The notes: generated from the sequence alone by a model not told the origin. 64,000 nucleotides of DNA from an uncultured Gemmatimonadales bacterium (GCA_963716055.1 CAVQSR010000001.1:1350791-1414790); one strand, 5' to 3'; shown: positions 1 through 12,462, numbered from the stretch's first letter. Made by a program: numbers and translations.

Positions 1-3000
1 CCGATTCACTCCCGCTCCACGACATACTGCGGCCAAACGCCGCCTGCGCGATATCTGTTCCAGAGTATCCCACGTCGACAGCTGCTTCAGCTTTCACAGC
101 CCAGTCGGCCGGATTTGGGTAACCAGCCAGCGGCGCGAGATGCAGCTCCTTCAAGGTGTCCATCTGGAGCAACTCTCTGAGGAGTGTCGCATCATTGCCT
201 ACCAAGTGTTGGACGATTTCTGAGGGAAATAGGTCCCCGGGCAGAGTCGCCATGAGTCGCCGCCGATCATCGACGCTCAACCGCTCTAGCGCCGCACTAA
301 TCGTTTCCTCACAGCGCCAGAGCTCGGAATTCTGATGTAACCGCTCGGCCAGCCACTCCATCGCTAGCGATGGGTCTGCCTGGAGAATCTCACGGAGAGA
401 CCACTCGTCACATGGAACGCGCAGGACTGCCCGGTGCCACACCTCGCGCAGAGACTCTCGTACGGTGCCTTTGGGATCAGCAGTCCATTCACCAATCGCC
501 GCTGCCGAAGCGATGAACGGGTCCCGGTGGGATAGGAGCCGCCGGACGACTGCTTCGGGAAGCTCCAAGCGTAGACAGAGACTCTCGATCCACTGCGCGC
601 CGCCATCCAGGCGCTCCAGTGCAAGGTCGATCAGCTCTTCTGGCGTTGCCTCCTCCTGTAGCACCGTGATCGCCGCCATAAGACGCTGTCGACCATCATC
701 AAGGCAGAGTAGGGCAAGCTGGTGACTCGTCGAAGCCTTATCTCGAAGTAATCGCCGTAGAAAGGGCTGCAGGAGGTCGGACGATGCGTTTCCCGCAAGG
801 AACGCCTCAAGCCAGGGTGCGCAGTCGTCCGTTTGATCCGCAATCACCTGGCACACATGCGGGGTCCACCGCGGCCACGGGTTGCTAATGAGGCGACCTT
901 CTTCCTCATGGCGAAGCATCTCGGGAACTGAGAGACCGGGGCCGGCCTGTGCCCATCGTGTCGCCAGTGCTGTCGCTCGCTCTCGCTGTTCCTCTTCCTC
1001 GGCTCGCCAGTCCCCCCGCTCCCGGTGAGGGAAGAGCGTCTCGAAGTCAGCGTCGACCGAGGCGGACAAGTCGACGCCGAATCGATCCGCGACTGAGGCT
1101 ACCCAGTGAAGAAACCCTGAGTGACCTTTGCCTGCATCCGCAAGATCGCGCAACATCTCGCCGGCAAAGGAGGCGGCTTCAGCGGCAAGGGGCTCCGGTA
1201 GCGGTCGAGACGGACGCGGATGATAGGCCCACGCAGACACAACGTCTTGCACGGGTTTCCAGTGCTGTACCGGCTCGTTGGCAAGTCGCCCGCGAACTGC
1301 TGGCCACATTGCACGAATCGCTCGCGCCTCCTCAAGAGACACGAACCCGAATGAGAGCGTGAGATTTCGGCCACTGCCCGGTTCCGGCTCGGTGCGCTCG
1401 AATTCCGGGGACAGTGCCAATACGAGCGCATGCAGCCCGACTGCCGGGTTCCGACCTTCGTCCAACCAGTGCTGCGCAGTCTTCAGCAGCTGGGTTCGCC
1501 GTTCGAGCACGGACGGCGTGCCGGGCACTGCCGCATGGATCCAGTCGGCAACCTGTCGCAGCGCATGATCAGGATGCGAATGCAGCGCGCGGTTGTCTCC
1601 AATGGCACCGCCCAGCAGTATCGGGAGCGCGACCTCAGGCGCCGTCTCCAGCATGGTCCGACCGATTCGTCCGACCCATTCCGGATGCTCCGTCGCAATC
1701 CAAGTCGTCTCACGTCGGCCGAGTCGGGAATACAAAGCCCACAGGTCATGGGAGCCGCAACGCTCAATAAGGCTCCGCACCAAGTCCTCTGAAACCCGGG
1801 CGCCTCGATGTTGAGCCCGGACAACCGTAAGTGTCAGTTCCTCCACGTTCGGTGCGACCGAAAGCAGGGGTTCGATCGGCAGGGACGTAGGACCAGCGAA
1901 GAACACGTCCCGCACCAGTACATCGCGCAATGCTGGCGGTCGCACAGTGAGTCGTTCTCGATCGACCTCAACCAATACGCCGCCGGCCGCAAGGTGCGAG
2001 ACCCGTTCGCGAAGTCTGGAGGCAGGCTCCTCCAAGTAATCCGCCACGGCCTGCATGGCCATCCCTGCATCGCCGCCCGCTGCAAACACGGCGAGCAACG
2101 TCTTCGTGTCACCGCCAATAAGTCGGTTGAACACAAAGGCGATCTCTTGCGCCAGAGCATCGCCTTGTGCTACAGCCCTCACGTCTCCTCGCAAGCACAG
2201 ATTGGAAAGTGTGACGGCTAGGCCCGGCTTCCCTTCAGCCTGATTCACAATCTCTTGGATCAGTCCGCGCGGGCCGCCGATGCCCGCGCCTCTCACAACT
2301 GCCGCAATCTCATCCTGAGACAATAGGTCCAACCCACGCACTGATGCGGATGGTACATCCAAAGCTCGCGCGACGTCATCGCGGCTCCCGGGCCACGAGT
2401 CGGCGATGATACGGAACTCACCCCCCATCTCGGATCGCAGGCGACGCAGCTGCGGCAGGCGGTCGAGTTGTAGATGCGCGTTCTCGACAACGAGTGCAGA
2501 AGGATTCTCGCGACGAATACCCGCGGCTATCTCACCCAAGTCGGGCGTATGAGCAAAGAGGCCTCCCTGCTCCTTGGCGAAGTGGTAAAGCAGGAATGTC
2601 TTCCCCACGCCCGGTTGTCCAACGACCAGGAGATCGCCCGGAGTGTGCACCAGCCATAGCATGTCCTGCGAGCGCCCAACCAACACATCACCGATCACGG
2701 ACCGCCCGGGCTGCGGCATCACAGACAGTGGCGGAGGCCCCCCGACGATCCCGAGCAACTCTTGGCACCACTCGGGACGGCGATACAGAAGGTCTGTGAA
2801 CGCAGGGCGATCGTGAATCTGTGTTAGTGTGAAGCCTAGATCGCGCGCCACCTTCTCGAGGGCACTACGCCGCCGGGCAGAAACCGATTGTGAGGTAGCG
2901 AATACGACTGCTCTACGTGTTCCACCACGGGCTAGGTACGACTGGAGATTCCGACGCAGATTGCGACCGAGATCGGCGCCGATCGTCGTGACCAGCGGAA

Positions 3001-3181
3001 ACGGAAGTCCTGCGCCATCGGCAATGGCGCCGTCCATACCCGCGTCGTCGCCACCGCGGATCGGCACGAGGGTGGGGTGTACAGCACCGAGGAGGTCGGC
3101 TGCACAGCGTTCGAACAGCTCGGGGTCGAGCTTGCCGCCTAGTCCTGCTTCGATGTCACGATAAAACGAGTCGCGTATCAT
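1..3181 (-). CDS. Large P-loop NTPase (AAA/STAND-like) with Mrr-like N-terminal domain and long alpha-helical C-terminal region; 3' end runs off the window (>=1060 aa seen)
   Basis: Absent from the ORF track because it has no in-window stop. My translation of the minus strand from ATG 3181..3179 stays open to position 2. All listed minus ORFs in 1-3180 have starts congruent to 0 mod 3; this frame is 1 mod 3. Begins MIRDSFYRDIEAGLGG. Walker A VVGQPGVGKTFLL (Lys codon 2602..2600). Walker-B-like ALVVENAH about 40 aa later. N-term LFERCAADLLG..IRGGDDAGMDG resembles the start of Mrr_cat. Confidence 0.75.
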   Translation of the reverse strand, partial: MIRDSFYRDIEAGLGGKLDPELFERCAADLLGAVHPTLVPIRGGDDAGMDGAIADGAGLPFPLVTTIGADLGRNLRRNLQSYLARGGTRRAVVFATSQSVSARRRSALEKVARDLGFTLTQIHDRPAFTDLLYRRPEWCQELLGIVGGPPPLSVMPQPGRSVIGDVLVGRSQDMLWLVHTPGDLLVVGQPGVGKTFLLYHFAKEQGGLFAHTPDLGEIAAGIRRENPSALVVENAHLQLDRLPQLRRLRSEMGGEFRIIADSWPGSRDDVARALDVPSASVRGLDLLSQDEIAAVVRGAGIGGPRGLIQEIVNQAEGKPGLAVTLSNLCLRGDVRAVAQGDALAQEIAFVFNRLIGGDTKTLLAVFAAGGDAGMAMQAVADYLEEPASRLRERVSHLAAGGVLVEVDRERLTVRPPALRDVLVRDVFFAGPTSLPIEPLLSVAPNVEELTLTVVRAQHRGARVSEDLVRSLIERCGSHDLWALYSRLGRRETTWIATEHPEWVGRIGRTMLETAPEVALPILLGGAIGDNRALHSHPDHALRQVADWIHAAVPGTPSVLERRTQLLKTAQHWLDEGRNPAVGLHALVLALSPEFERTEPEPGSGRNLTLSFGFVSLEEARAIRAMWPAVRGRLANEPVQHWKPVQDVVSAWAYHPRPSRPLPEPLAAEAASFAGEMLRDLADAGKGHSGFLHWVASVADRFGVDLSASVDADFETLFPHRERGDWRAEEEEQRERATALATRWAQAGPGLSVPEMLRHEEEGRLISNPWPRWTPHVCQVIADQTDDCAPWLEAFLAGNASSDLLQPFLRRLLRDKASTSHQLALLCLDDGRQRLMAAITVLQEEATPEELIDLALERLDGGAQWIESLCLRLELPEAVVRRLLSHRDPFIASAAAIGEWTADPKGTVRESLREVWHRAVLRVPCDEWSLREILQADPSLAMEWLAERLHQNSELWRCEETISAALERLSVDDRRRLMATLPGDLFPSEIVQHLVGNDATLLRELLQMDTLKELHLAPLAGYPNPADWAVKAEAAVDVGYSGTDIAQAAFGRSMSWSGSES

Positions 3182-3407
3182 TCTTCAGAGCCTACCACCA
3201 ATGTCGGCCGCTTGGAAACAGCACCGCGACGACGCTAGTAACACTAGCAGAGCCGCACCCTTAGTCTGCGAGGTACTGGATTACGACGGCTCCGTCACCA
3301 GATCCACGATCATTTTGACCCGGGATTCGATCTCCTGGCGAGTAGGCTTCACCGTCTGAAAAACGAAGTTGATCGTCTTGGCCTCGCTGCTCCCTCACGC
3401 GGTCGCG

Positions 3408-3572
3408 CTAATGCGTATTGAAGTCGTTGTATGGTGCCTTGAGCGCTAACGCGACGTAGATCTCGAGAAGGGCTTGCCGGCATGGATCCGGCTCTTCTAC
3501 AAAACGGATCTTCATCTTTCGGATGCGCTTCCTAGCGAGGCGGAACGCAGTGACGAAGCCGTCATCCGTCAT
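3408..3572 (-). CDS. Small hypothetical ORF (54 aa), start overlaps the stop of the upstream hydrolase gene
   Basis: Below the ORF-track size cutoff. ATG 3572..3570 lies in GATGACGGATGA and overlaps the hydrolase stop (3564..3562). Reads MTDDGFVTAFRLARKRIRKMKIRFVEEPDPCRQALLEIYVALALKAPYNDFNTH*. No recognisable domain. Confidence 0.2.
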   Translation of the reverse strand: MTDDGFVTAFRLARKRIRKMKIRFVEEPDPCRQALLEIYVALALKAPYNDFNTH

Positions 3573-5691
3573 CAAGTGGGCGCGTGAACCGTCCGCTCTG
3601 TAGCTCGCTCACAACAGTCGAGATCCCAGCTAGCATAAGAATTATTGTGAACACAAGTAGTAGGTAGTTGAAGAGCCAGTCGGACGGCAGCCCTTCAAGG
3701 AGCAGCCACGAAAGACCGAAGACCATCCACACAATCATCGCCATGAAAAAGAGAGTGACTCGCATCCTACCGCGCGGAAGAACCCCGTTGCCTCCAGGCC
3801 ACTGGTTGGCCAGGACCCGATCCTGCTCCGCGCGGACCCAGAATCGCCATAAGCTGCGCAGGAGGCCGCAACTGGCCACGTGGATGAGGGCGATCCCCCC
3901 CAGAAGTACCGCGACCCGGGTAGCCTTTGACGCGACAGCGGGTAGCCAGGCTGGCAGTTTGAGTGGTTGCGGCACCAATTCTGAATATTTGAACCATACA
4001 GAGGCGCCCACAGTTAGCCAGGCAATCCCGACAGCGCGGCGCGCCAGCCGCAGCCAACCGACCCGCCAGGCCGCGCGCGCATCCACAGCAGGCGGGACCG
4101 GTGAAAGCTCGTCCCTCCAGGGGCTCATCGCTGTCTCCGCGCACTCCCTTAGGACGCGCAGAACGAAGCCATCGAGATTGTCCCAATAGGCAGAGTGGTC
4201 GGCAAGCCGCGAGCCAAGGTTCCAGATCCGGACCGATTCCGGTACGCCTGGTTCGGTGGTTCTCATGGGACCGTTCGGCACGGGGTCATGCGACGCGTAG
4301 AGGTCGATCCACCGATGCAAGCCCAGGGGTCTTCGTACTTGCTCGACGAGGCTCTTCATGCGCTGAGAGAGGATCCGGTATGAGAATATCCCTAGCACTA
4401 CGAATGCTGCGGCGAGGAATGTTACGCGATTTAAAGGCGCGTGCTTGAAGGGCACCGAACGGCTAAGGGATCCCCATGCGACGAGTGTTCCGAGAAGGAA
4501 CCCCGAGAGTAGCAAGAAGGATAGCAATGCGCTCAGGCGTTGCAACCACGGCTTCGAGACCAGCAAGGCAGCCGACCGTGTCCCCAGGTTGGGCCACAGC
4601 TTCAAAGCTAGGTAGATAATCAATCCAACGAATACTGCGACAGCCGAAGGAGCAAGCGCGACTCCGACGGCCTTCAGAATGTCCAGGAAGGTGATCCTTT
4701 GAGCTATGACATCTACAAACAGCCAGAGAGACAATCCGATGGCGATGACGATGGCTATGGTAGCAAGCAATGTGGGGTTCTTCTCTACCTTGGCAAATCT
4801 GGCTGACAAAACTTTCAGACTGACGAGCAGCGCCGTGCCAGCGCCGAATGTCACTAGGCTGTCTGGAACGACACGTGGCCCCAGGGGATCTTGGCGTGTC
4901 GCCTCACTAGTTTCTGCCGCTGTCCCGAGGATCCCACCCAGCGCGTCCATCGCGACGGCCGCGCCTTGCGAATGGGCGACGACGACCGTGGTCTCGCAGC
5001 ACTGCTTCAGTCGTGCGAGTCCCCCAAGGACCCGCGTGCGAATCAGCGCGGCCCGGATCGGACTCTTGACGAATGCGAGGCTATCGCCGACGATCGCCGC
5101 GAACCCTCCCCTCGCAGCGAGGATCCGGGTCCGCAGTTGCGGGATAGGGAGCAGTCCAGCGACTAGTCCGATTGCCAAAATGGCGATGTACAAGGGCGCG
5201 AACAGCAGAGCTATGGGGAGCCAGGCGTAGGTTTTGACTACCGAGACGATTTTATTGCTGACCTTGCCTGACTCGGCTGCGGTCCAGTACCTCTGCGCAA
5301 TGCGGAGGGCGATGGACCATGGCAGCGCCGTCACGCTCCAGGAAACAAGCTCTCGGTAGCTCGGAGCCAGGAAGGCGTCCGCCCACCACCCCTCGCAAAG
5401 CAGCCAACTCTCCTGACTTTCGCCCGCTCGTAGCCGAACAACCGCTTCCGCGCGACCCTCGTCATCTGGACCAGCCTGCAACGCGGTCGCGCTAACCCTG
5501 TAGTTCGTCGCTCGGCCGATTGTCTGCAATAGTACGTCGCCCCACCGAACGAGGGTTTCCCCGGACCGCTGTGAACCGATCCCATGTACGAGGAGCACAC
5601 CGAGCTGGTATTCCTTCGGCGCTTGGAGGGAAACACCAGAGAGGTCGTGGCCCCCCTCACTGTGATCGAGCCGACGGGTTGGTGTCATCAC
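3562..5691 (-). CDS. Membrane-embedded alpha/beta-hydrolase (lipase/esterase-like serine hydrolase), 709 aa
   Basis: ORF-track protein. Oxyanion-type LLVHGIGS (res 33-40), nucleophile elbow VVVAHSQGA (Ser241), then DLYASHDPV (Asp469) and LADHSAYW (His499). Hydrophobic helices at about 155-182, 307-441 (four) and 550-697 (about four). GGGAGA lies 5 nt upstream of the ATG. Confidence 0.75.
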   Translation of the reverse strand: MMTPTRRLDHSEGGHDLSGVSLQAPKEYQLGVLLVHGIGSQRSGETLVRWGDVLLQTIGRATNYRVSATALQAGPDDEGRAEAVVRLRAGESQESWLLCEGWWADAFLAPSYRELVSWSVTALPWSIALRIAQRYWTAAESGKVSNKIVSVVKTYAWLPIALLFAPLYIAILAIGLVAGLLPIPQLRTRILAARGGFAAIVGDSLAFVKSPIRAALIRTRVLGGLARLKQCCETTVVVAHSQGAAVAMDALGGILGTAAETSEATRQDPLGPRVVPDSLVTFGAGTALLVSLKVLSARFAKVEKNPTLLATIAIVIAIGLSLWLFVDVIAQRITFLDILKAVGVALAPSAVAVFVGLIIYLALKLWPNLGTRSAALLVSKPWLQRLSALLSFLLLSGFLLGTLVAWGSLSRSVPFKHAPLNRVTFLAAAFVVLGIFSYRILSQRMKSLVEQVRRPLGLHRWIDLYASHDPVPNGPMRTTEPGVPESVRIWNLGSRLADHSAYWDNLDGFVLRVLRECAETAMSPWRDELSPVPPAVDARAAWRVGWLRLARRAVGIAWLTVGASVWFKYSELVPQPLKLPAWLPAVASKATRVAVLLGGIALIHVASCGLLRSLWRFWVRAEQDRVLANQWPGGNGVLPRGRMRVTLFFMAMIVWMVFGLSWLLLEGLPSDWLFNYLLLVFTIILMLAGISTVVSELQSGRFTRPLDDG

Positions 5692-5807
5692 AGTCTCCCA
5701 GTGAACCGTTTCAGGTGGTGTGACTCATTCAACTAGTTATTTGACGTCCGAATGACTGCGCCGAGCGCATCAGCATCTGCGTGCCATGGACCGCCGGTAT
5801 GGCCCGT

Positions 5808-6068
5808 TTACTCTGGTCGTTCGTCTGGTGCTTCTGTAGCCTCGGCGGACAGGTCCTCGCGGAGGAGTCTGATGATCCCGGGGACGTGCCGGCGAGCTGG
5901 CGCTGTCCGATTTCTCTCCCAGTTGTAGACCGTTGTCTTGTCCACGGCAAGTCGCTCGGCCACCTCGCGCTGCAGTAACCCCAATTCGAGCCGCCGCCAG
6001 TGGAGCCGGTCCCCAAGGGTCTTGATCTCCTTCGGATAGCCTACCGGCAGCGGCTTCCGTCCCTTCAA
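5808..6068 (-). CDS. XRE-family helix-turn-helix transcriptional regulator (about 86 aa from TTG start)
   Basis: The C-terminal 86 aa of ORF 5808..6188 read KEIKTLGDRLHWRRLELGLLQREVAERLAVDKTTVYNWERNRTAP, a classic HTH_3/XRE pattern. The track's N-terminal extension is R/G-rich and overlaps the comM fragment. In-frame TTG at 6068..6066 chosen as start (uncertain). Confidence 0.6.
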   Translation of the reverse strand: MKGRKPLPVGYPKEIKTLGDRLHWRRLELGLLQREVAERLAVDKTTVYNWERNRTAPARRHVPGIIRLLREDLSAEATEAPDERPE

Positions 6069-6097
6069 AGTGGCATGGCAAAAAGGCAACGCAGGAA

Positions 6098-6619
6098 TGT
6101 CCCTACGGCTACGCGGGCGACCCCCACCACGACTGCACCTGCGGCCCCCCGGACGTGCAGCGTTACCTCGCGCGCGTCTCGGGGCCATTGCTCGACCGCA
6201 TCGACATCCACCTGGAGGTGCCGGCTGTGAAGTACCGCGAGCTGTCCGAGCGCGCGGCCGGGGAGCCGAGTGCCGCGATCCGCGCGCGGGTGGACCGGGC
6301 GCGGACCACGCAGCGCGCGCGGTTCGCCGGGCGGCCCGGCGTGTTCGCCAACGCGCACATGGGGCCGCGCGACATCCGGGCCCACTGCCGCGTGAGCGAC
6401 GGCGCGGAGGCGTTGCTGCGGACGGCGATCACCCGGCTTGGCCTTTCAGCGCGAGCGTATCACCGCATTCTCAAGATCGCCCGCACGATCGCGGATCTGG
6501 ACGGCGCCGCGGGCCTGGAGCCGAAGCATGTGAGCGAGGCGATTCAATACCGCAGTCTGGACCGGCGGGGCGGAATGACACCGGGTCCCGTCGTTCCCAT
6601 TTCGACACACGGGCGGTAA
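6098..6619 (+). pseudogene. comM: 3' fragment (C-terminal about 173 aa) of comM/yifB Mg-chelatase-like ATPase, 5'-truncated
   Basis: In-frame reading from 6098 gives CPYGYAGDPHHDCTCGPPDVQRYLARVSGPLLDRIDIHLEVP...SARAYHRILKIARTIADLDG...HVSEAIQYRSLDR. This is the conserved Cys cluster and C-terminal domain of the ComM/YifB family. The approximately 330 N-terminal residues (Lon-like and AAA+ parts) are missing, and upstream sequence in that frame (WHGKKATQE) is unrelated. Confidence 0.8.
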
Positions 6620-6663
6620 CGTCGGCCGCCGTCCCGACTCGCCCTGGTAACGTAACAGGCCAT

Positions 6664-6671
6664 TGTATAAT
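6664..6671 (+). promoter_or_regulatory. Extended -10 promoter element TGTATAAT
   Basis: Exact TGnTATAAT at 6664-6671 in a locally AT-rich patch of the 6620-6829 intergenic region, about 160 nt upstream of ORF 6830. Confidence 0.35.
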
Positions 6672-6829
6672 GATTTACGGAATTCACCACAGCCGGCACG
6701 GTCATTGCTTACTCCCGGTCCGGAGGATGGTCCTCCCACAACGACAAGAGCACACCCGGGGCGACCCGGGGTCGCAAAGCCAGGGGTCTCTCCGAGACAG
6801 CCCAGCTGCCGAAAGTGAGATGAGCGCGC

Positions 6830-7186
6830 ATGAACAGCTTCGATTCAGGGCCCGCGGCCGTACGATCGGCCGCCCGCCAATCCCAGCAGCTGGTGACCTA
6901 CCTCCTCAACGGACCGGATGACCCCGCGGCGTGGGCCGAGCTCGCGCGCCTCGCGGACGGCATCCGGGCCGAAGCCGCCGCGCAGTCGCTCAGTGAGCTG
7001 GAGGGGGTCGCCGCGAGCATCGCGGCCATGGCGGACGTCGCCGTGCTCGACGCGCACACCACGATGGAGCTCGACGCCGCGGCGGACCGACTCCTCGTCC
7101 TCACGGACCGGGCCTCGCAGTCCCTGGAGGCGCTGACGCTGCCGGAGGAAGACGCTGTCGCGGGGCCCTACTCGGATGCCGGGTAG
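6830..7186 (+). CDS. Hypothetical protein (118 aa), Ala/Leu-rich helical
   Basis: ORF-track ORF in an otherwise empty interval. No recognisable motif, and coding status not verified. Confidence 0.35.
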   Translation: MNSFDSGPAAVRSAARQSQQLVTYLLNGPDDPAAWAELARLADGIRAEAAAQSLSELEGVAASIAAMADVAVLDAHTTMELDAAADRLLVLTDRASQSLEALTLPEEDAVAGPYSDAG

Positions 7187-7214: not shown

Positions 7215-8270
7215 TCAGGCGCGGCCGACCTCGGGCCTACCGCTCAGGTCGGGATGGTGATCTCGCAGCCACGCGACCGAGTCCGATAGCGTCACGCGGC
7301 CGTCGCGGCTGCGATAGTCGAGCTCCGCCGCGGCGTAGCGCGACGTCACGGCCCAGTGGTGCCGCGCCATCTCGATCACGACCGGGTCGGGCAGAGCGGA
7401 CGTCGGTCGCCCGACGAGCCGGCTGAGCCGGTCCGCCAGCGCCGCGAGCGCCCACGCGAGGTGGTAGGGCAGCACGCGCCGCGGCGCCGGCAGGCCCGCT
7501 ACGTCTCCCGCCAGGGCGAAGAACTCCTCCACGCCGCACACCGTGCCCGGCAGGTGGTACACCGGCCGGGCCGCGGGCCGCTCCATGATGCGCACGAGCG
7601 CCGCGGCCACGTCGCGCACGTCGGCGAAGTGCATCCCGCCGCGAATCACGAACGGGAGCCGGCCCCGCAGGTAGCGCACCAGGTGTCCCGTGGAGCGGAA
7701 GCGGTGGTCACCCGGTCCGAGCAGCATCGGTGGGCGCACGATCACGAGGTCCACGCCCAGCTCCTCCGCCAACGCCCGCGCCCCGCGCTCCGCCAGGATC
7801 TTCGAGTGGTAATAGGGCCAGCGGGCGACGCGCTCCTCGCAATAGGGCGCGTCCTCGTCCGCCCACTCGGCGGCGCCGCGAAAGCAGCCGACGGTCCCGG
7901 TGCTCGACACGACCACCAGCCGGCAGCGATGGACCGCGGCGAGGCGCACCGCCGCGCGCGTGCCCGCGACGTTGGTGTGGTACATGTCGCCCGGCTCGCG
8001 CCGGCTGTGGCGGACGACGGCCGCCAGGTGGAAGATGCCGCCGAGGCCGTGCACGCCGGCGTCCGCCGACCACGCCTCGGGTTCCGTGACGGATCCCGCG
8101 AGCACCGTGACCGCGGCGAGTGGTCGCGTCCACTCCATCCGGTGCCAGGCGTCGGGGGAGCGCGCGAGCGCGATCACGCGACGCTGAGGGTCGCCGCGCC
8201 GGAGGGTGAGCAGCAGGTGGCGTCCGAGGAAGCCACCGGCGCCGGTGACGAGATACGGACCGTCGGTCAG
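7215..8270 (-). CDS. NAD-dependent epimerase/dehydratase-family SDR (candidate acyl/alkyl-DHAP reductase)
   Basis: C-terminal 351 aa of ORF 7215..9689: YLVTGAGGFLGRHL (Rossmann GxxGxxG), YYHSKILAE (YxxxK). The upstream part of that ORF is R/P/A junk antisense-overlapping the next gene. Start is uncertain: only CTG 8270 sits next to the upstream stop, with no ATG/GTG/TTG nearby. Confidence 0.75.
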   Translation of the reverse strand: MTDGPYLVTGAGGFLGRHLLLTLRRGDPQRRVIALARSPDAWHRMEWTRPLAAVTVLAGSVTEPEAWSADAGVHGLGGIFHLAAVVRHSRREPGDMYHTNVAGTRAAVRLAAVHRCRLVVVSSTGTVGCFRGAAEWADEDAPYCEERVARWPYYHSKILAERGARALAEELGVDLVIVRPPMLLGPGDHRFRSTGHLVRYLRGRLPFVIRGGMHFADVRDVAAALVRIMERPAARPVYHLPGTVCGVEEFFALAGDVAGLPAPRRVLPYHLAWALAALADRLSRLVGRPTSALPDPVVIEMARHHWAVTSRYAAAELDYRSRDGRVTLSDSVAWLRDHHPDLSGRPEVGRA

Positions 8271-10630
8271 GCCACGGGCTCCGGGGCGCGCCCGGGATCG
8301 CCCACGGCATGGCCGGGCGCGGCGCGCAGCGCCCCGAGCCGCTGCTCGAGCGGCTCGTCCCCCGCACCCGTCTCGAACAGGTGGGCGAACTGGTTCCCGA
8401 GCGAGCGCGCGATCTCCGGATCGAGGTCGGGGGGCAGACTCAACGCGCTTTCGAGCACCCGCCCGCCGCGCTGCTCGATCGCGCGGCGGAGCCATGCCGC
8501 ATCGACGCCGGGGACCGGATGCCGGTCGAGGAAGCCTCGCAGGTGGTACGTCGTCGTGACGGTGGCGCGCGCCAGGCGCGCGAGCACCTCCTGGCTCGCG
8601 GCGTAGACGTCGTCCGCTGGGTCGAGCGGAATCGGAGCGCCGCAGGCGATGTGGATCCGTCCCAGATCGATCCGGCCGAGGAACACGCGCACCGTCCAGG
8701 CGAGCAGCGCGCCGAGGCGCATCTTCGGCTTCGGCGCCCCGGCCAGCTCGCGGGCGAAGCTCGCTTCTTCGGGCACGCGCTCGTAGGACAGCGCCACCGG
8801 GAGCAGCGCGCAGGGCTCGCCCGTGGCTTGCACCGAGCGCAGCAGGCCGCGCTTGGGCGGCAGGAACCGGCGCGAGCGGCTCCGCTGTCCCTCGATGAAC
8901 ACCTCGAGCGCCCGGCGCTCGCGCACGAGCGCGCGCACCCGGGCCGTCACGGCCGGGTCCTCGCGCCCCTCCCCCCGGGTCACGTAGAACGCCTGCAGGC
9001 GGGTGGCGAGCCACCCCACGACGGGAATACGCGCGAAGTCGACGGCCGCGGCCACGTAGGGAATGGGGACGCCGAGGTCGCGCCGCGCGAAGAAGAGATA
9101 GGAGCACAGGATGAAATCGAGATAGCTGCGGTGCGACGGCACGATCACGAGCGGGCAGTCCGGGGGCACGGCCCGGCGGGCTGCTTCGAACGACGGCAGG
9201 TCCACCGTGATTCGCTCGCAGCAGCGGCGCAGCACCTTCGTCACGAGCCAGGCCGCGGCGCGGAGCAGGCCGGTCCCGTCGGGTTGCCGTCGGGCCCAGC
9301 GCAGGTCGCCGCCGTGGCCCGGATGGCGCCGGCCGGCGAGGCACCACTGCGTGTCGTCGCGCCGCAGAAGGTACCGATACACCCCGCGGCTCACCGTGGC
9401 GACGTACCCCCCGGGATCGAACCCCGCGTCGAGCGGTGCCGCCGAGCGGAAGTCGAAGGTATGCCGGGTGAAGTAGCGAAACACGCGGTTGGCGTGGGTG
9501 AGGCGCGCCCGCAGCTGGGCGGCCGCGCGGCGCGCGCGCGGCGTGCGCATCCCGGCCGCCGCGATGGGCAGCCGGTGGTGCATCGCGTCCGCGACGCCGA
9601 AGGCCAATCCCGGCGGCCCGAGGTAGCGCATGGCGGGCGGCCGCTCGACGGGATGCACGGCGAAGAAATCCTGGATGCGCGTCCAGCATTCCCGCACGGT
9701 GGCGCTGCGCGCGACGCCCGCCACCGCGTGCTGAATCAACGGCTCGCTCCCGGCGGGAGGCGCTCCGTTACAGGCGAGCAGGATGCGGGTGGCCACTTCG
9801 TCCACCGGGATCAGGTCGAGGCGCGCGTCGGGGTCGCCCACCACGGCGCGCAGGTGCCCCGATCCCAGCAGCATCACGAAGGTGGCGAACCCGGCCGCGC
9901 TGTCGATCCACCCGGGAAAGGGATAGCGCCAGCTCGCCGAAATGATGCTGGGGCGCACGATCGCGAGCGGCACCCCGCCGCTCCGCGCCACCAGCAGATG
10001 CTCGGCCAGGGACTTGGTGAACGTGTAGGTGTTCGGGTGACCGGAGCGCCGGAACAGCTCGGCGGCGCGGGCGCCGCCGTTCAGGATGTCCCCGTAGAGC
10101 TCCTCGGCGGGCGCCGGGAGCGGCGCGAGCGTTTCGCCGGCGGACGTGTGCGCCCCGGCGGCGGGCGTCACGTACGCGGTCGACACGTACACGAGCCGCT
10201 CGAGTCCGGCGCACGCCCGCGCCAACTCGAGCAGGTTGAGGCTCGCGGCCACGTTCCACCGCGCGGCGTCGGCCAGCGGATGATCGAACTCCACCGAGGC
10301 AGCGGCGTGGAGCGCGTGGGTGGTCGTGCCCGTGATCGCGTCCCGCGCCGCGGGGTCGAGAGCGAGACCCGGGTGCTCGAGGGTGCCCTCGACCACCCGA
10401 ACCAACCGGGTCCAGTCCCGCGGCAGCCCGACGAAGCACGCCGAGGGGGCCACCTCGCGGCGGAACCGCTCGTCGGCGCCGCGCGCACCCTTGCGGCGGA
10501 TCACCACGGTCACCTGGGTGGTCTCGAGCTCGTCGCGCCGGCGCAGTAGCTCCTCGAGCAGCACCTTTCCCAGGAAGCCCGTGACGCCCGTCAGCAGATA
10601 GGCCCGCCCCGCGCCTCCCCCCTCCCGCAT
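8267..10630 (-). CDS. Fusion protein: fatty acyl-CoA reductase (FAR) domain + PlsB/GNPAT-type acyltransferase (DHAPAT-like) domain, 787 aa
   Basis: From internal ATG 10630 (MREGGGAGRAYLLTGVTGFLGKVLLEELL). FAR motifs TGxTGFLGK and NTYTFTKSLAE. C-terminal half has acyltransferase blocks VPSHRSYLDFIL (HxxxxD) and FIEGQRSRSRRFLPPKRG. Confidence 0.85.
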   Translation of the reverse strand: MREGGGAGRAYLLTGVTGFLGKVLLEELLRRRDELETTQVTVVIRRKGARGADERFRREVAPSACFVGLPRDWTRLVRVVEGTLEHPGLALDPAARDAITGTTTHALHAAASVEFDHPLADAARWNVAASLNLLELARACAGLERLVYVSTAYVTPAAGAHTSAGETLAPLPAPAEELYGDILNGGARAAELFRRSGHPNTYTFTKSLAEHLLVARSGGVPLAIVRPSIISASWRYPFPGWIDSAAGFATFVMLLGSGHLRAVVGDPDARLDLIPVDEVATRILLACNGAPPAGSEPLIQHAVAGVARSATVRECWTRIQDFFAVHPVERPPAMRYLGPPGLAFGVADAMHHRLPIAAAGMRTPRARRAAAQLRARLTHANRVFRYFTRHTFDFRSAAPLDAGFDPGGYVATVSRGVYRYLLRRDDTQWCLAGRRHPGHGGDLRWARRQPDGTGLLRAAAWLVTKVLRRCCERITVDLPSFEAARRAVPPDCPLVIVPSHRSYLDFILCSYLFFARRDLGVPIPYVAAAVDFARIPVVGWLATRLQAFYVTRGEGREDPAVTARVRALVRERRALEVFIEGQRSRSRRFLPPKRGLLRSVQATGEPCALLPVALSYERVPEEASFARELAGAPKPKMRLGALLAWTVRVFLGRIDLGRIHIACGAPIPLDPADDVYAASQEVLARLARATVTTTYHLRGFLDRHPVPGVDAAWLRRAIEQRGGRVLESALSLPPDLDPEIARSLGNQFAHLFETGAGDEPLEQRLGALRAAPGHAVGDPGRAPEPVA

Positions 10631-10646
10631 GCGATTCACGGCGCTC

Positions 10647-12462
10647 TCAGGACCGGAGCCGCGCGGCCGGCGGTCCGGCCACCAGCTGATTGCCGGCTCC
10701 GAAGACGTTGGCCGGATCGATCGCCCGCTTGACCTCCGCGGCCCACTCGAGGGCGGCGGGCGACATGATGCGGGGCAGGAACGCACGCCGCAGCTTGCCG
10801 ACGCCGTGGTGGTGCGAGAGCGATCCGCCGGAGTGCAGAATCTCGTCGCGAGCCGACCGCTCGAGTTCGGCGAAGACCGCGCTCGGCTGCTCCACTCCCT
10901 TGTGGTAGAACGCCAGGTAGAAATAGACGCACACGCCCGTCTGGTAGACCTGCGTCACCCGGCAGCTGATGAAAGGTGTACCGGGCAGGCCGCGCGCCGC
11001 GTGCTCGGCGGCGATCCGCCGCTTCACGTTGTCGCACAACGACAATGCCTGGCTCCACGGCACCGACGTCTCGAACGACTCGCCCAGGATGTAATGCCGC
11101 ATGACGAAGTCGCGGATGTAGGCGATGCCGAAGGTCAGCTGGTACCCGCGGCGCCCGTTCTCCGCGCCCGCGCCCATGCCGCCGTGGCGCCGCGCGAGGC
11201 GGCTCACGGCGCGCCGCTCGGTCCGGACCTCGTCGGCGGCCGCCTTCGAAGACCAGCGTGCAGGCGACCATGCGGTCCGGATCGAAGCCGCGCAGCCGCG
11301 TGACGAAGAACTTCTCGGCCTGCCGCTTGAGCGCCGCCAGGCCCTCGGCCGGGCTTGAGCGTCATGCTCAGCTGGAACTGGAGGTTGTCCACCAGCCGCA
11401 CGCTGGCGGGCGGCGTCGCCTCCCGCGTGAGATCGTACAGAAAGCCGACGCCCGCCTCGAAGGACGGGAAGATGAGCGAGTCGTAGCGCGTGACCTCGGG
11501 CAGCGGGAAGATCTTCACCACCGCCCGGGTGATGATGCCGAGGGTGCCCTCGGAGCCGAAGATCCAGCGCCGCGCGTCGACGCCGACCGACTCGCGCGGC
11601 GCGACCGCGGGTCGCGACACCGGGCCGCGCGCCGTGACCACGTCGACGTCCAGCACCAGGTCCTCGATGTTGCCGTAGCGGTTCTTCTTCATGCCGCTGC
11701 AGTGGGTCGCGATCCAGCCGCCCAGCGTCGAGAACTCGACGCTGTCGGGCTCGTGGCCCAGGGTGAAGCCGTGGGCCCCGAGCTGCTCCTCGATGTGGCG
11801 CCCCACGGCGCCCGCCTCGATGCAGGCCATGAGGTTCGTCGGGTCGATCCACAGGATCCGGTTCAGCCGTTCGCATGTCCACCGACACGATCGTCCGCTC
11901 CTCGTCGCTCGGGCAGCGGAGCGCGTCGGTGACGTTCGTGCCGCCGCCGTAGGGCACGAGGCAGACGTCGTGGCGCGCCGCCGCCTCCACCAGCGCGACG
12001 ACGTCGTCCTCGGTGCGGGGGTACACCACGAGATCGGGCAGCCGTTCGAGGCGCCCGTACTTGATGAGCGTACATCTCCTCCAGCGTGTGGCCGTGGCCG
12101 TGGCGCAGGCGGATCGCGGCGTCGGTGGTGACGGCGTCCGCGGTCAGGAAGGTCCGCAGCTCCGCCACGAACAGCGGGTGCGCGCGCGGCGCGGGCACGT
12201 CCGGGGGATACGCGGAGTCGTGCGTGTCGCGGGGATCGAGCGCGACCCCGAGGACGCGGCTGGTCCACGGGAGCAGATCGGGCAATTCGGCGCCGCTCAA
12301 GGGGTAGCGGGAGCCCGTCAGCGTGACGTGCCCGTTGGGCAGCACCGTGAATGCCGAGTCGCGAAAGCCCCACACGTCGAGGCTTTCCTCGTCGCCGGCG
12401 TGGTGGGGCGGATCGCCCGGCACGATGCGGTCATCGGCGTCGAGCGCGAAGCGGGGGGCCAT
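10647..12462 (-). pseudogene. Alkyldihydroxyacetonephosphate synthase (AGPS, FAD-linked oxidase) interrupted by four frameshifts
   Basis: Homology runs through four track ORFs in three frames. 12462->~12066: WGFRDSAF..GHTLEEMY. ~12066->~11872: IKYGRLERLPDLVVYPRTEDDVV..PYGGGTNV. ~11870->~11350: LNRILWIDPTNLMACIEAG..GWIATHCSGMKKNRYGNIEDL. ~11350->~11240: EGLAALKRQAEKFFVTRLRGFDPDRMVACTLVFEG. ~11240->10647: AADEVR..GYQLTFGIAYIRDF..HHHGVGK. Length is 1816 nt, not a multiple of 3. Confidence 0.8.

Follow-up and report, generated by a model that had tools for sequence, protein, structure and literature searches.

The right-hand end of a probable comM-interrupting island in an uncultured Gemmatimonadales bacterium: probably independent cargo genes, among them a candidate single-gene STAND immune sensor

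We analyzed a 64,000-nucleotide (nt) stretch of DNA from an uncultured Gemmatimonadales bacterium (GCA_963716055.1 CAVQSR010000001.1:1350791-1414790; hereafter the window, the whole stretch that was analyzed), of which positions 1 to 6097 form the right edge of what is probably a horizontally acquired island, at least 11 kb long, inserted in comM. Four minus-strand open reading frames (ORFs) lie in this end: a gene for an XRE-family helix-turn-helix (HTH) regulator, a gene for a 709-amino-acid (aa) membrane protein with hydrolase motifs (the hydrolase), a micro-ORF, and a gene for a STAND-type NTPase of more than 1,000 aa. A first interpretation, made from the nucleotide sequence alone (the sequence-only reading), had taken the four together for an undescribed antiphage module. 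Our comparative analysis indicates instead that this is probably an island edge with independent cargo genes, one of them a self-contained STAND NTPase, and not one four-gene system. Whether that NTPase is an unnamed, Avs-like single-gene antiviral sensor is, by analogy with Avs proteins, a question on which we judge the chances to be roughly even.

RESULTS

The genes of the island end are not found together elsewhere

The two large genes were never neighbors in any other locus that we collected. For the NTPase, a 35-sequence alignment (A1) was searched against one genome per GTDB species and gave 67 loci, for which as much as 10 kb was taken to the left and to the right; a hidden Markov model (HMM) of the hydrolase matched nothing in any of them (0/67). 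Their flanks add up to 1.01 Mb, and in 58 loci at least 3 kb is present in the direction in which the hydrolase gene lies in our island. The reverse comparison used 82 hydrolase loci (two contig look-ups and 80 metagenome loci, of which 52 extend at least 1 kb and 23 at least 4 kb downstream), and none contained the NTPase at E ≤ 1e-3 (0/82). The partner gene was likewise missing from all five closest-relative loci, those of NTPase relatives with 55% and 50% identity (L150 to L153) and that of a hydrolase relative with 47% identity (L154). A 712-aa gene with no Pfam match, upstream of the NTPase in L153, was considered as a possible hydrolase relative and rejected, as it gave no HMM match even at E ≤ 10. 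When all flanking ORFs were clustered, every neighbor family was limited to at most 7 of the 67 NTPase loci.

The two small genes did not behave as parts of a module either. No XRE homologue was found beside hydrolase or NTPase homologues, save for a weak match 5 kb away in one locus (L068), and no homologue of the micro-ORF lay beside any hydrolase or NTPase homologue examined. Because the large genes do not co-occur in the 67, 82, and 5 loci, because neither small gene is a conserved partner of a large one, and because 380 nt separate the two large genes, we regard the four as independent cargo, and the single defense module first proposed is not borne out.

It is extremely improbable that the XRE gene, hydrolase, micro-ORF, and NTPase form one defense system in which the STAND protein senses infection, the hydrolase executes abortive infection, and the XRE protein exerts control. 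Such a system would fit the co-oriented, contiguous arrangement on an island beside a Shedu gene, a sensor paired with a membrane effector would follow a common defense logic, and the micro-ORF has a coding-like GC content at its codon positions; however, the missing co-occurrence largely refutes it, the architecture of the NTPase is self-sufficient, and the homologues of the hydrolase sit in housekeeping contexts. One point does weigh against complete independence: the comparative data are compatible with a coupling confined to this strain, where the adjacent genes may possibly work together.

A self-contained STAND NTPase in three parts

A database entry identical to the NTPase (P0121, 100% identity) is 1111 aa long; the window therefore omits only 51 residues of a protein that had been given as at least 1060 aa. 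The AlphaFold2 (AF2) model of the protein (pLDDT 88.5, pTM 0.79) falls into three parts, and in the PDB Foldseek ranks the STAND-TPR protein 6mfv first (E = 3e-6), ahead of the AAA+ proteins RuvB and Cdc6 and of importin/HEAT solenoids. Model and fold match thus agree with the P-loop protein with a long helical tail, in a STAND/Avs-like layout, that had been read from the sequence.

The central, nucleotide-binding part contains a Walker A motif (GQPGVGKT, 2620..2597), a Walker B motif of the form hhhhDDAH (about residues 230-236), and a GxP-type motif (EGKPGLA, about residues 316-322) in a helical domain that is followed by a winged helix. In the 35-member alignment, G188, P190, G193, K194, T195, Q314, G317, P319, and G320 are invariant, among them the Walker A lysine that had been singled out at the start, and the three motifs as a whole vary little or not at all. 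Pfam matches are weak and all below the cut-offs (nSTAND3 in 13 of 35 members and nSTAND_NTPase5 in 7 of 35, in addition to AAA_22 and AAA_16); what places the protein in the STAND superfamily is the combination of Walker A and B motifs, GxP helical domain, winged helix, order of strands and helices, and top fold match. The NTPase of Avs5 is of the nSTAND3 type (bioRxiv 10.1101/2025.07.08.663546). In the full-length protein the C-terminal solenoid runs from about residue 430 to residue 1111 and gives ARM/HEAT/TPR-type Foldseek matches, as would be expected of the C-terminal repeat sensor of an Avs protein.

The N-terminal domain had been described as a nuclease-like head; the likeness to Mrr holds, but the canonical catalytic (E/Q)xK lysine is absent. 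Residues E24, D46, and D50 are invariant and the Asp loop of Mrr_cat is present; an invariant pair, T66-T67, occupies the position in the third strand where Mrr has QxK. Mrr_cat itself matched 8 of 20 family members weakly (best E = 0.0017, under the Pfam threshold), and the PADLOC Aga_REase model matched 16 of 35 (best E = 2.8e-6). The likeness to Mrr is in the first half of the domain, which comprises the helix with F-E, strand 1, and a loop of the form G-G-x-D-x-G-x-D-G; a local hhalign alignment with genuine Mrr (P = 1.7e-4) is limited to that helix and the GDGGIDG loop, and a profile of the domain returned only noise from PDB sequences. The acidic loop is modeled with low pLDDT yet is invariant in sequence, which argues that the domain is under selection. 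Clustering at 50% identity gave 831 clusters with this domain (706 at E ≤ 1e-10); it is almost confined to proteins of about 1100 to 1160 aa, and the best 150 of the 831 clusters are all full-length members or fragments of them.

Spread and neighbors of the NTPase family

A word-indexed search returned 365 homologues of the NTPase, with 39 to 57% identity, 100% query cover, and lengths of 1093 to 1146 aa; overall, the homologues are strikingly uniform in size, at about 1105 to 1160 aa. The 67 loci come from at least 10 phyla, including Chloroflexota, Planctomycetota, Acidobacteriota (Thermoanaerobaculia), Gemmatimonadota (Longimicrobiales), Myxococcota, and Bdellovibrionota; the spread is patchy, at about 40% identity across phyla and without synteny.

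The surroundings of several members have a defense or mobile character. In our strain, the next gene past the left end of the window encodes a 412-aa SduA_C (Shedu) protein, a known defense nuclease, according to the public gene table; as the NTPase gene adjoins it, the two make up a small defense cluster here, in keeping with the defense character that the sequence-only reading had proposed for the island. A relative with 50% identity (L153) has a ThsB_TIR gene, two TIR_2 genes, and an LD_cluster3 gene upstream (1..4272 of that locus), a relative with 55% identity (L150) adjoins genes for a large serine recombinase and a DnaG-type primase (5354..6931), and a large serine recombinase and a primase are also next to the relative in L151. 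Mrr_cat, MADS (mad2/mad3), NucC, RmrA, PDC-S65, and integrases are found among the 150 nearest neighbors of the family.

In seven loci (L011, L019, L031, L034, L036, L040, and L056) a gene for an AbiEii-type nucleotidyltransferase ends -4 to +39 nt from the NTPase start. All seven are from Thermoanaerobaculia/Acidobacteria, and the arrangement is operon-like; it could reflect either lineage synteny or functional pairing. Four of these seven loci, and others besides, share a further conserved ORF upstream, about 100 aa long. Separately, in six loci from Longimicrobiales/Gemmatimonadota (L045, L048, L051, L060, L066, and L069), a gene for an AAA_14/DUF4143 ATPase of about 480 to 550 aa directly abuts the NTPase gene, its end meeting the NTPase start.

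Several observations weigh against an Avs-like antiviral role. The family has many neighbors with housekeeping roles, such as cobU/cobS, ddl, and the pantothenate kinase gene, and PADLOC-positive neighbors (at 1e-10) make up about 8% for the NTPase and about 7% for the hydrolase taken as a control, the latter being mostly generic matches; the tie of the family to defense is thus only suggestive. None of the 35 members matches a PADLOC Avs/AVAST model at E ≤ 0.01 (PADLOC-DB v2, with Avs6-21 lying outside the set), and therefore the protein is not placed in a named Avs family. A scan of 2.9 million viral contigs from IMG/VR returned no homologue of the NTPase. Lastly, the head does not have the lysine of PD-(D/E)xK nucleases, and the tail is conserved along its whole length, which is unusual for a protein engaged in an arms race.

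Most of these points also speak for the main rival explanation, a non-defense STAND protein (a signaling or regulatory ATPase of the MalT/AfsR type or from another nonimmune clade) that is on the island by chance. The enrichment in PADLOC matches being no clearer than in the control, the fixed length, the conserved tail, the lysine-free head, and the absence from viral contigs would all suit such a protein, and a 2026 survey of 589 prokaryotic STAND clades found only 198 of them to be associated with defense, with at least 90 structurally distinct defense families (PMC13581612). Against it, the NTPase has no DNA-binding output domain, its patchy spread across phyla lacks synteny, its family lies repeatedly next to Shedu, TIR, AbiEii, MADS, Mrr, and recombinase genes, and its invariant acidic loop marks an N-terminal domain under selection. 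We consider the non-defense explanation unlikely, and an Avs-like sensor stays the reading that we favor for the NTPase at the evenly balanced strength given above.

A predicted membrane hydrolase whose homologues lie mostly among housekeeping genes

The 709-aa protein has an identical database entry of 708 aa (P0001, 100% identity), the public gene call starting at the second Met, and its AF2 model is confident (pLDDT 85.9, pTM 0.84). The motifs of an alpha/beta-hydrolase follow modeled strands in the expected order: HGIG at residues 35-38 (oxyanion hole) after strand 27-34, AHSQGA at 238-243 (nucleophile elbow) after strand 231-239, an Asp at 462/468 after strand 459-465, and Asp-His at 497-498 after strand 484-488, all of them invariant. 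The serine of AHSQG (4977..4963; residue 240/241, codon 4971..4969), which had been singled out at the outset, is invariant in the 35 homologues of this family. Eight segments stand out as strongly hydrophobic in a Kyte-Doolittle scan, and one or two weaker ones come from the AF2 model; the resulting 8 to 10 transmembrane (TM) helices agree with the earlier description of a membrane protein with serine-hydrolase motifs and about 9 TM helices. Three long hydrophobic helix bundles (about residues 111-230, 305-439, and 533-701) are inserted among the motifs.

The protein has no Pfam, NCBIfam, or PADLOC match, and the Foldseek comparison that led from the NTPase to a STAND structure returned nothing significant for the hydrolase from the PDB (best relevant E = 1.6) or BFVD; the sole link from its profile to PDB sequences is the nucleophile elbow of the diacylglycerol (DAG) lipase 5xk2 (E = 0.5). 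It counts against the assignment to the alpha/beta-hydrolases that it draws on motif order and the AF2 model, with no significant family or fold match. A membrane serine hydrolase is nevertheless a well-motivated prediction.

We found more than 300 homologues, mostly in soil metagenomes, with 37 to 51% identity. One of them (L001) lies beside rpsI-rplM and lepA, and the neighbors recorded over 51 nonredundant loci include queF/queD/queC, Ada/AlkA-AraC, acyltransferases, thiC, and sigma factors. Mobile surroundings are occasional: L002 has IS66, L154 has Prim-Pol and a resolvase, and one relative is on an IMG/VR contig. The homologues are thus mostly in ordinary chromosomal or housekeeping settings, and nothing ties the family to defense. 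A soil subclade (e.g., L090, L114, L122, L125, and L130) is syntenic with queuosine-precursor genes, with five QueF, four PTPS/QueD, and two QueC matches among the neighbors; genes for Ada/AlkA-AraC regulators recur beside other members of the family.

It is very improbable that the hydrolase is by itself a defense or toxin gene, such as a phospholipase-type effector of abortive infection, under the control of the adjacent XRE repressor. Its place on the island directly downstream of the XRE gene would suit this explanation, as would the relative on a mobile-element-like contig (L154) and the one on a viral contig, but no XRE homologue is adjacent in the 82 loci, housekeeping neighbors dominate, PADLOC gives no match, and the hydrolase activity is itself only presumed.

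The island edge and its smaller genes

The reading of the low-GC block as a horizontally acquired island that ends at a truncated comM is supported. In a composition scan, the GC content is 0.54 to 0.65 over positions 1 to 6000 and 0.69 to 0.76 beyond 6250; in summary, the block has 59 to 64% GC and the DNA past it 70 to 76%. ORF listing and translation recover the four co-oriented minus-strand frames of the first description, which occupy the block up to about 6097 (Table 1). From 6098 to 6619 the plus strand matches TIGR00368 (YifB/ComM; E = 1.4e-43) and Mg_chelatase_C (E = 6.5e-33). The first recognizable ComM residues (ECPYGYAGDP) begin at about 6095-6098, which supports a boundary at 6097, and a minus-strand hairpin (6107..6090) with a T-run spans the junction. 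Genomic islands are known to insert in comM; those of the AbaR/Tn6022 type in Acinetobacter are one instance.

TABLE 1 Features of the island end and of its junction with comM, in window coordinates
Feature	Position	Strand	Basis or remark
STAND-type NTPase, first 1060 of 1111 codons	1..3181 (ATG at 3181)	-	Translation; 3' end beyond the window
NTPase N-terminal domain, residues 1-147, alpha/beta, Mrr-like PD-(D/E)xK-type fold	2741..3181	-	Invariant columns, weak Mrr_cat match
NTPase nucleotide-binding oligomerization-type module, residues about 170-415	1937..2674	-	Walker A/B, GxP, winged helix
NTPase C-terminal all-helical solenoid, presumed sensor	2..1894	-	Residues about 430-1060 of 1111; helix-only DSSP
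Spacer between hydrolase and NTPase, 380 nt, GC 0.56	3182..3561	.	Lowest-GC sequence of the block
Micro-ORF, 54/55 aa	3572/3575..3408	-	Overlaps the hydrolase stop by 11-14 nt
Polytopic membrane protein with alpha/beta-hydrolase motifs, 709/708 aa	3562..5691	-	Motifs, AF2, hydropathy
XRE-family HTH regulator, 86 aa, TTG start	5808..6068	-	HTH_3 E = 2.4e-7, HTH_31 E = 2.9e-7
Island/chromosome junction	6069..6097	.	GC step, end of comM homology, hairpin/T-run across the junction
comM/yifB 3' fragment (Mg-chelatase-like AAA+ ATPase)	6098..6619	+	Residues 344-499 of 499

The identical sequence is present in public data as a 2.47-Mb contig and as an 11,196-nt (11.2-kb) Logan contig. The gene table of the latter runs XRE (86 aa), 708 aa, 1111 aa, 412 aa (SduA_C), 216 aa, 150 aa, 155 aa, and 483 aa; therefore, the island continues for at least 5 kb past the left end of the window, beginning with the Shedu gene. 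The Logan assembly stops about 125 nt past the island/comM junction (at about 6220 of the window), which could be an assembly break at a polymorphic site, as might arise if only part of the population carries the island. Terminal repeats, att-like duplications, and a target duplication were sought around the junction without success, a Tn7-like end (terminal TGT/ACA) was not evident in the junction sequence, and no transposase or integrase is visible within the window. Against the island as described here, it must be said that its left junction, the 5' half of comM, and any integration machinery lie outside both the window and the 11-kb public contig.

Between the two large genes, the spacer probably carries a promoter of the NTPase's own, and a gap of this length is consistent with separate transcription of the two genes. 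A consensus scan gave no convincing promoter or terminator, the counts being at shuffle level. The 54-aa ORF that had been described as coupled to the hydrolase gene does exist and does overlap its stop codon, but a search of 5.8 billion proteins returned no homologue of it, and the public gene calls for the identical DNA leave it out. Its GC contents at the three codon positions (0.55/0.36/0.70) are coding-like, most likely by chance, and the micro-ORF is most likely no real gene. The HTH_3 and HTH_31 matches uphold the identification of the XRE regulator, whose gene is the last of the island, starts about 29 nt from the junction, and is called identically in the public annotation.

Beyond the junction, a c-di-GMP-I-GGC riboswitch aptamer (RF03167) lies at 6740..6814 (+); its score of 59.8 bits is just above the gathering score, 59 (E = 1.3e-11). 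It sits 120 nt past the comM stop and 16 nt before an ORF of 118 aa with no Pfam match (6830..7186). Farther along, 8267..10786 (-) encodes an 838-aa fusion of a fatty-acyl reductase (NAD_binding_4, E = 7e-56) and a glycerolipid acyltransferase (E = 1.5e-22), in host DNA of 73 to 75% GC.

DISCUSSION

Adjacency on an island had mimicked a new four-gene defense system, and comparative genomics removes this tempting false lead by pointing to independent cargo. Two widespread uncharacterized families are left, both with confident structure models and neither annotated in databases; a cluster look-up returned neither a name nor an accession for the two proteins. One, from environmental phyla that have been little studied, is a candidate STAND immune sensor encoded by a single gene and has an unusual head derived from Mrr; the other is a predicted polytopic membrane alpha/beta-hydrolase. 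Neither is surprising in kind, and STAND sensors with nuclease-like heads already make up dozens of families.

By analogy with Avs proteins, we infer that the NTPase solenoid would bind a trigger, probably a phage protein, and that binding would lead to ATP-dependent oligomerization of the NTPase, which would bring the N-terminal domains together. The gathered Mrr-derived domains would then act as the effector, and since the canonical catalytic lysine is absent, their chemistry may differ from ordinary DNA cleavage by PD-(D/E)xK enzymes. The 709-aa protein would be a stand-alone, membrane-embedded enzyme of the alpha/beta-hydrolase kind with a putative Ser-Asp-His triad, carried on the island as a passenger, and the XRE gene, which is not a conserved partner of the others, may serve, at the end of the island, to regulate either the island itself or its neighbor.

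A bolder combination of these proposals is tentative and, taken as a whole, rather unlikely. According to it, the NTPase would found an unnamed Avs-like antiviral STAND family (the 831 clusters, with members in Chloroflexota, Planctomycetota, Acidobacteriota, Gemmatimonadota, Myxococcota, and Bdellovibrionota) whose lysine-free, Mrr-derived effector kills or signals by a new chemistry and whose conserved solenoid recognizes a conserved phage component; separately, the hydrolase would represent a new class of alpha/beta-hydrolases set in a bundle of about 10 TM helices.

Each part of the island end can be compared with a known system. Like the AbaR/Tn6022-type islands, the present one appears to be lower-GC foreign DNA inserted in comM/yifB and brings accessory cargo; those islands carry resistance genes, whereas the cargo here is of the defense type, and no transposase, integrase, terminal repeat, or target duplication is visible in our window. 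The hydrolase shares with alpha/beta-hydrolase lipases and esterases (for example, the class-3/DAG lipase 5xk2) the order of HG oxyanion motif, GxSxG-type elbow, Asp, and His; in contrast to the known lipases, 8 to 10 TM helices are inserted in it as three bundles, and it has no significant database match. The head of the NTPase has in common with the Mrr-type type IV restriction endonucleases (Mrr_cat, PF04471) the first half of the domain, namely, the F-E helix, the first strand, and the G-D-x-G-x-D-G loop, and differs from them in that the Q-x-K of the third strand is replaced by an invariant T-T, that its scores are under the threshold, and that it is nearly exclusive to one architecture.

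Compared with Avs proteins, the NTPase is shorter (1111 aa), matches no PADLOC Avs model, has no (E/Q)xK lysine in its head, and carries a tail that is conserved and not variable. The layout is nonetheless that of Avs1-5 and of the surveyed defense families (PMC13581612), with an effector-like head, a STAND module, and a helical-repeat sensor in one polypeptide. As Avs proteins do, it occurs alone, spreads horizontally, and is sometimes found in defense islands, and its weak similarity to nSTAND3 is to the module that Avs5 carries.

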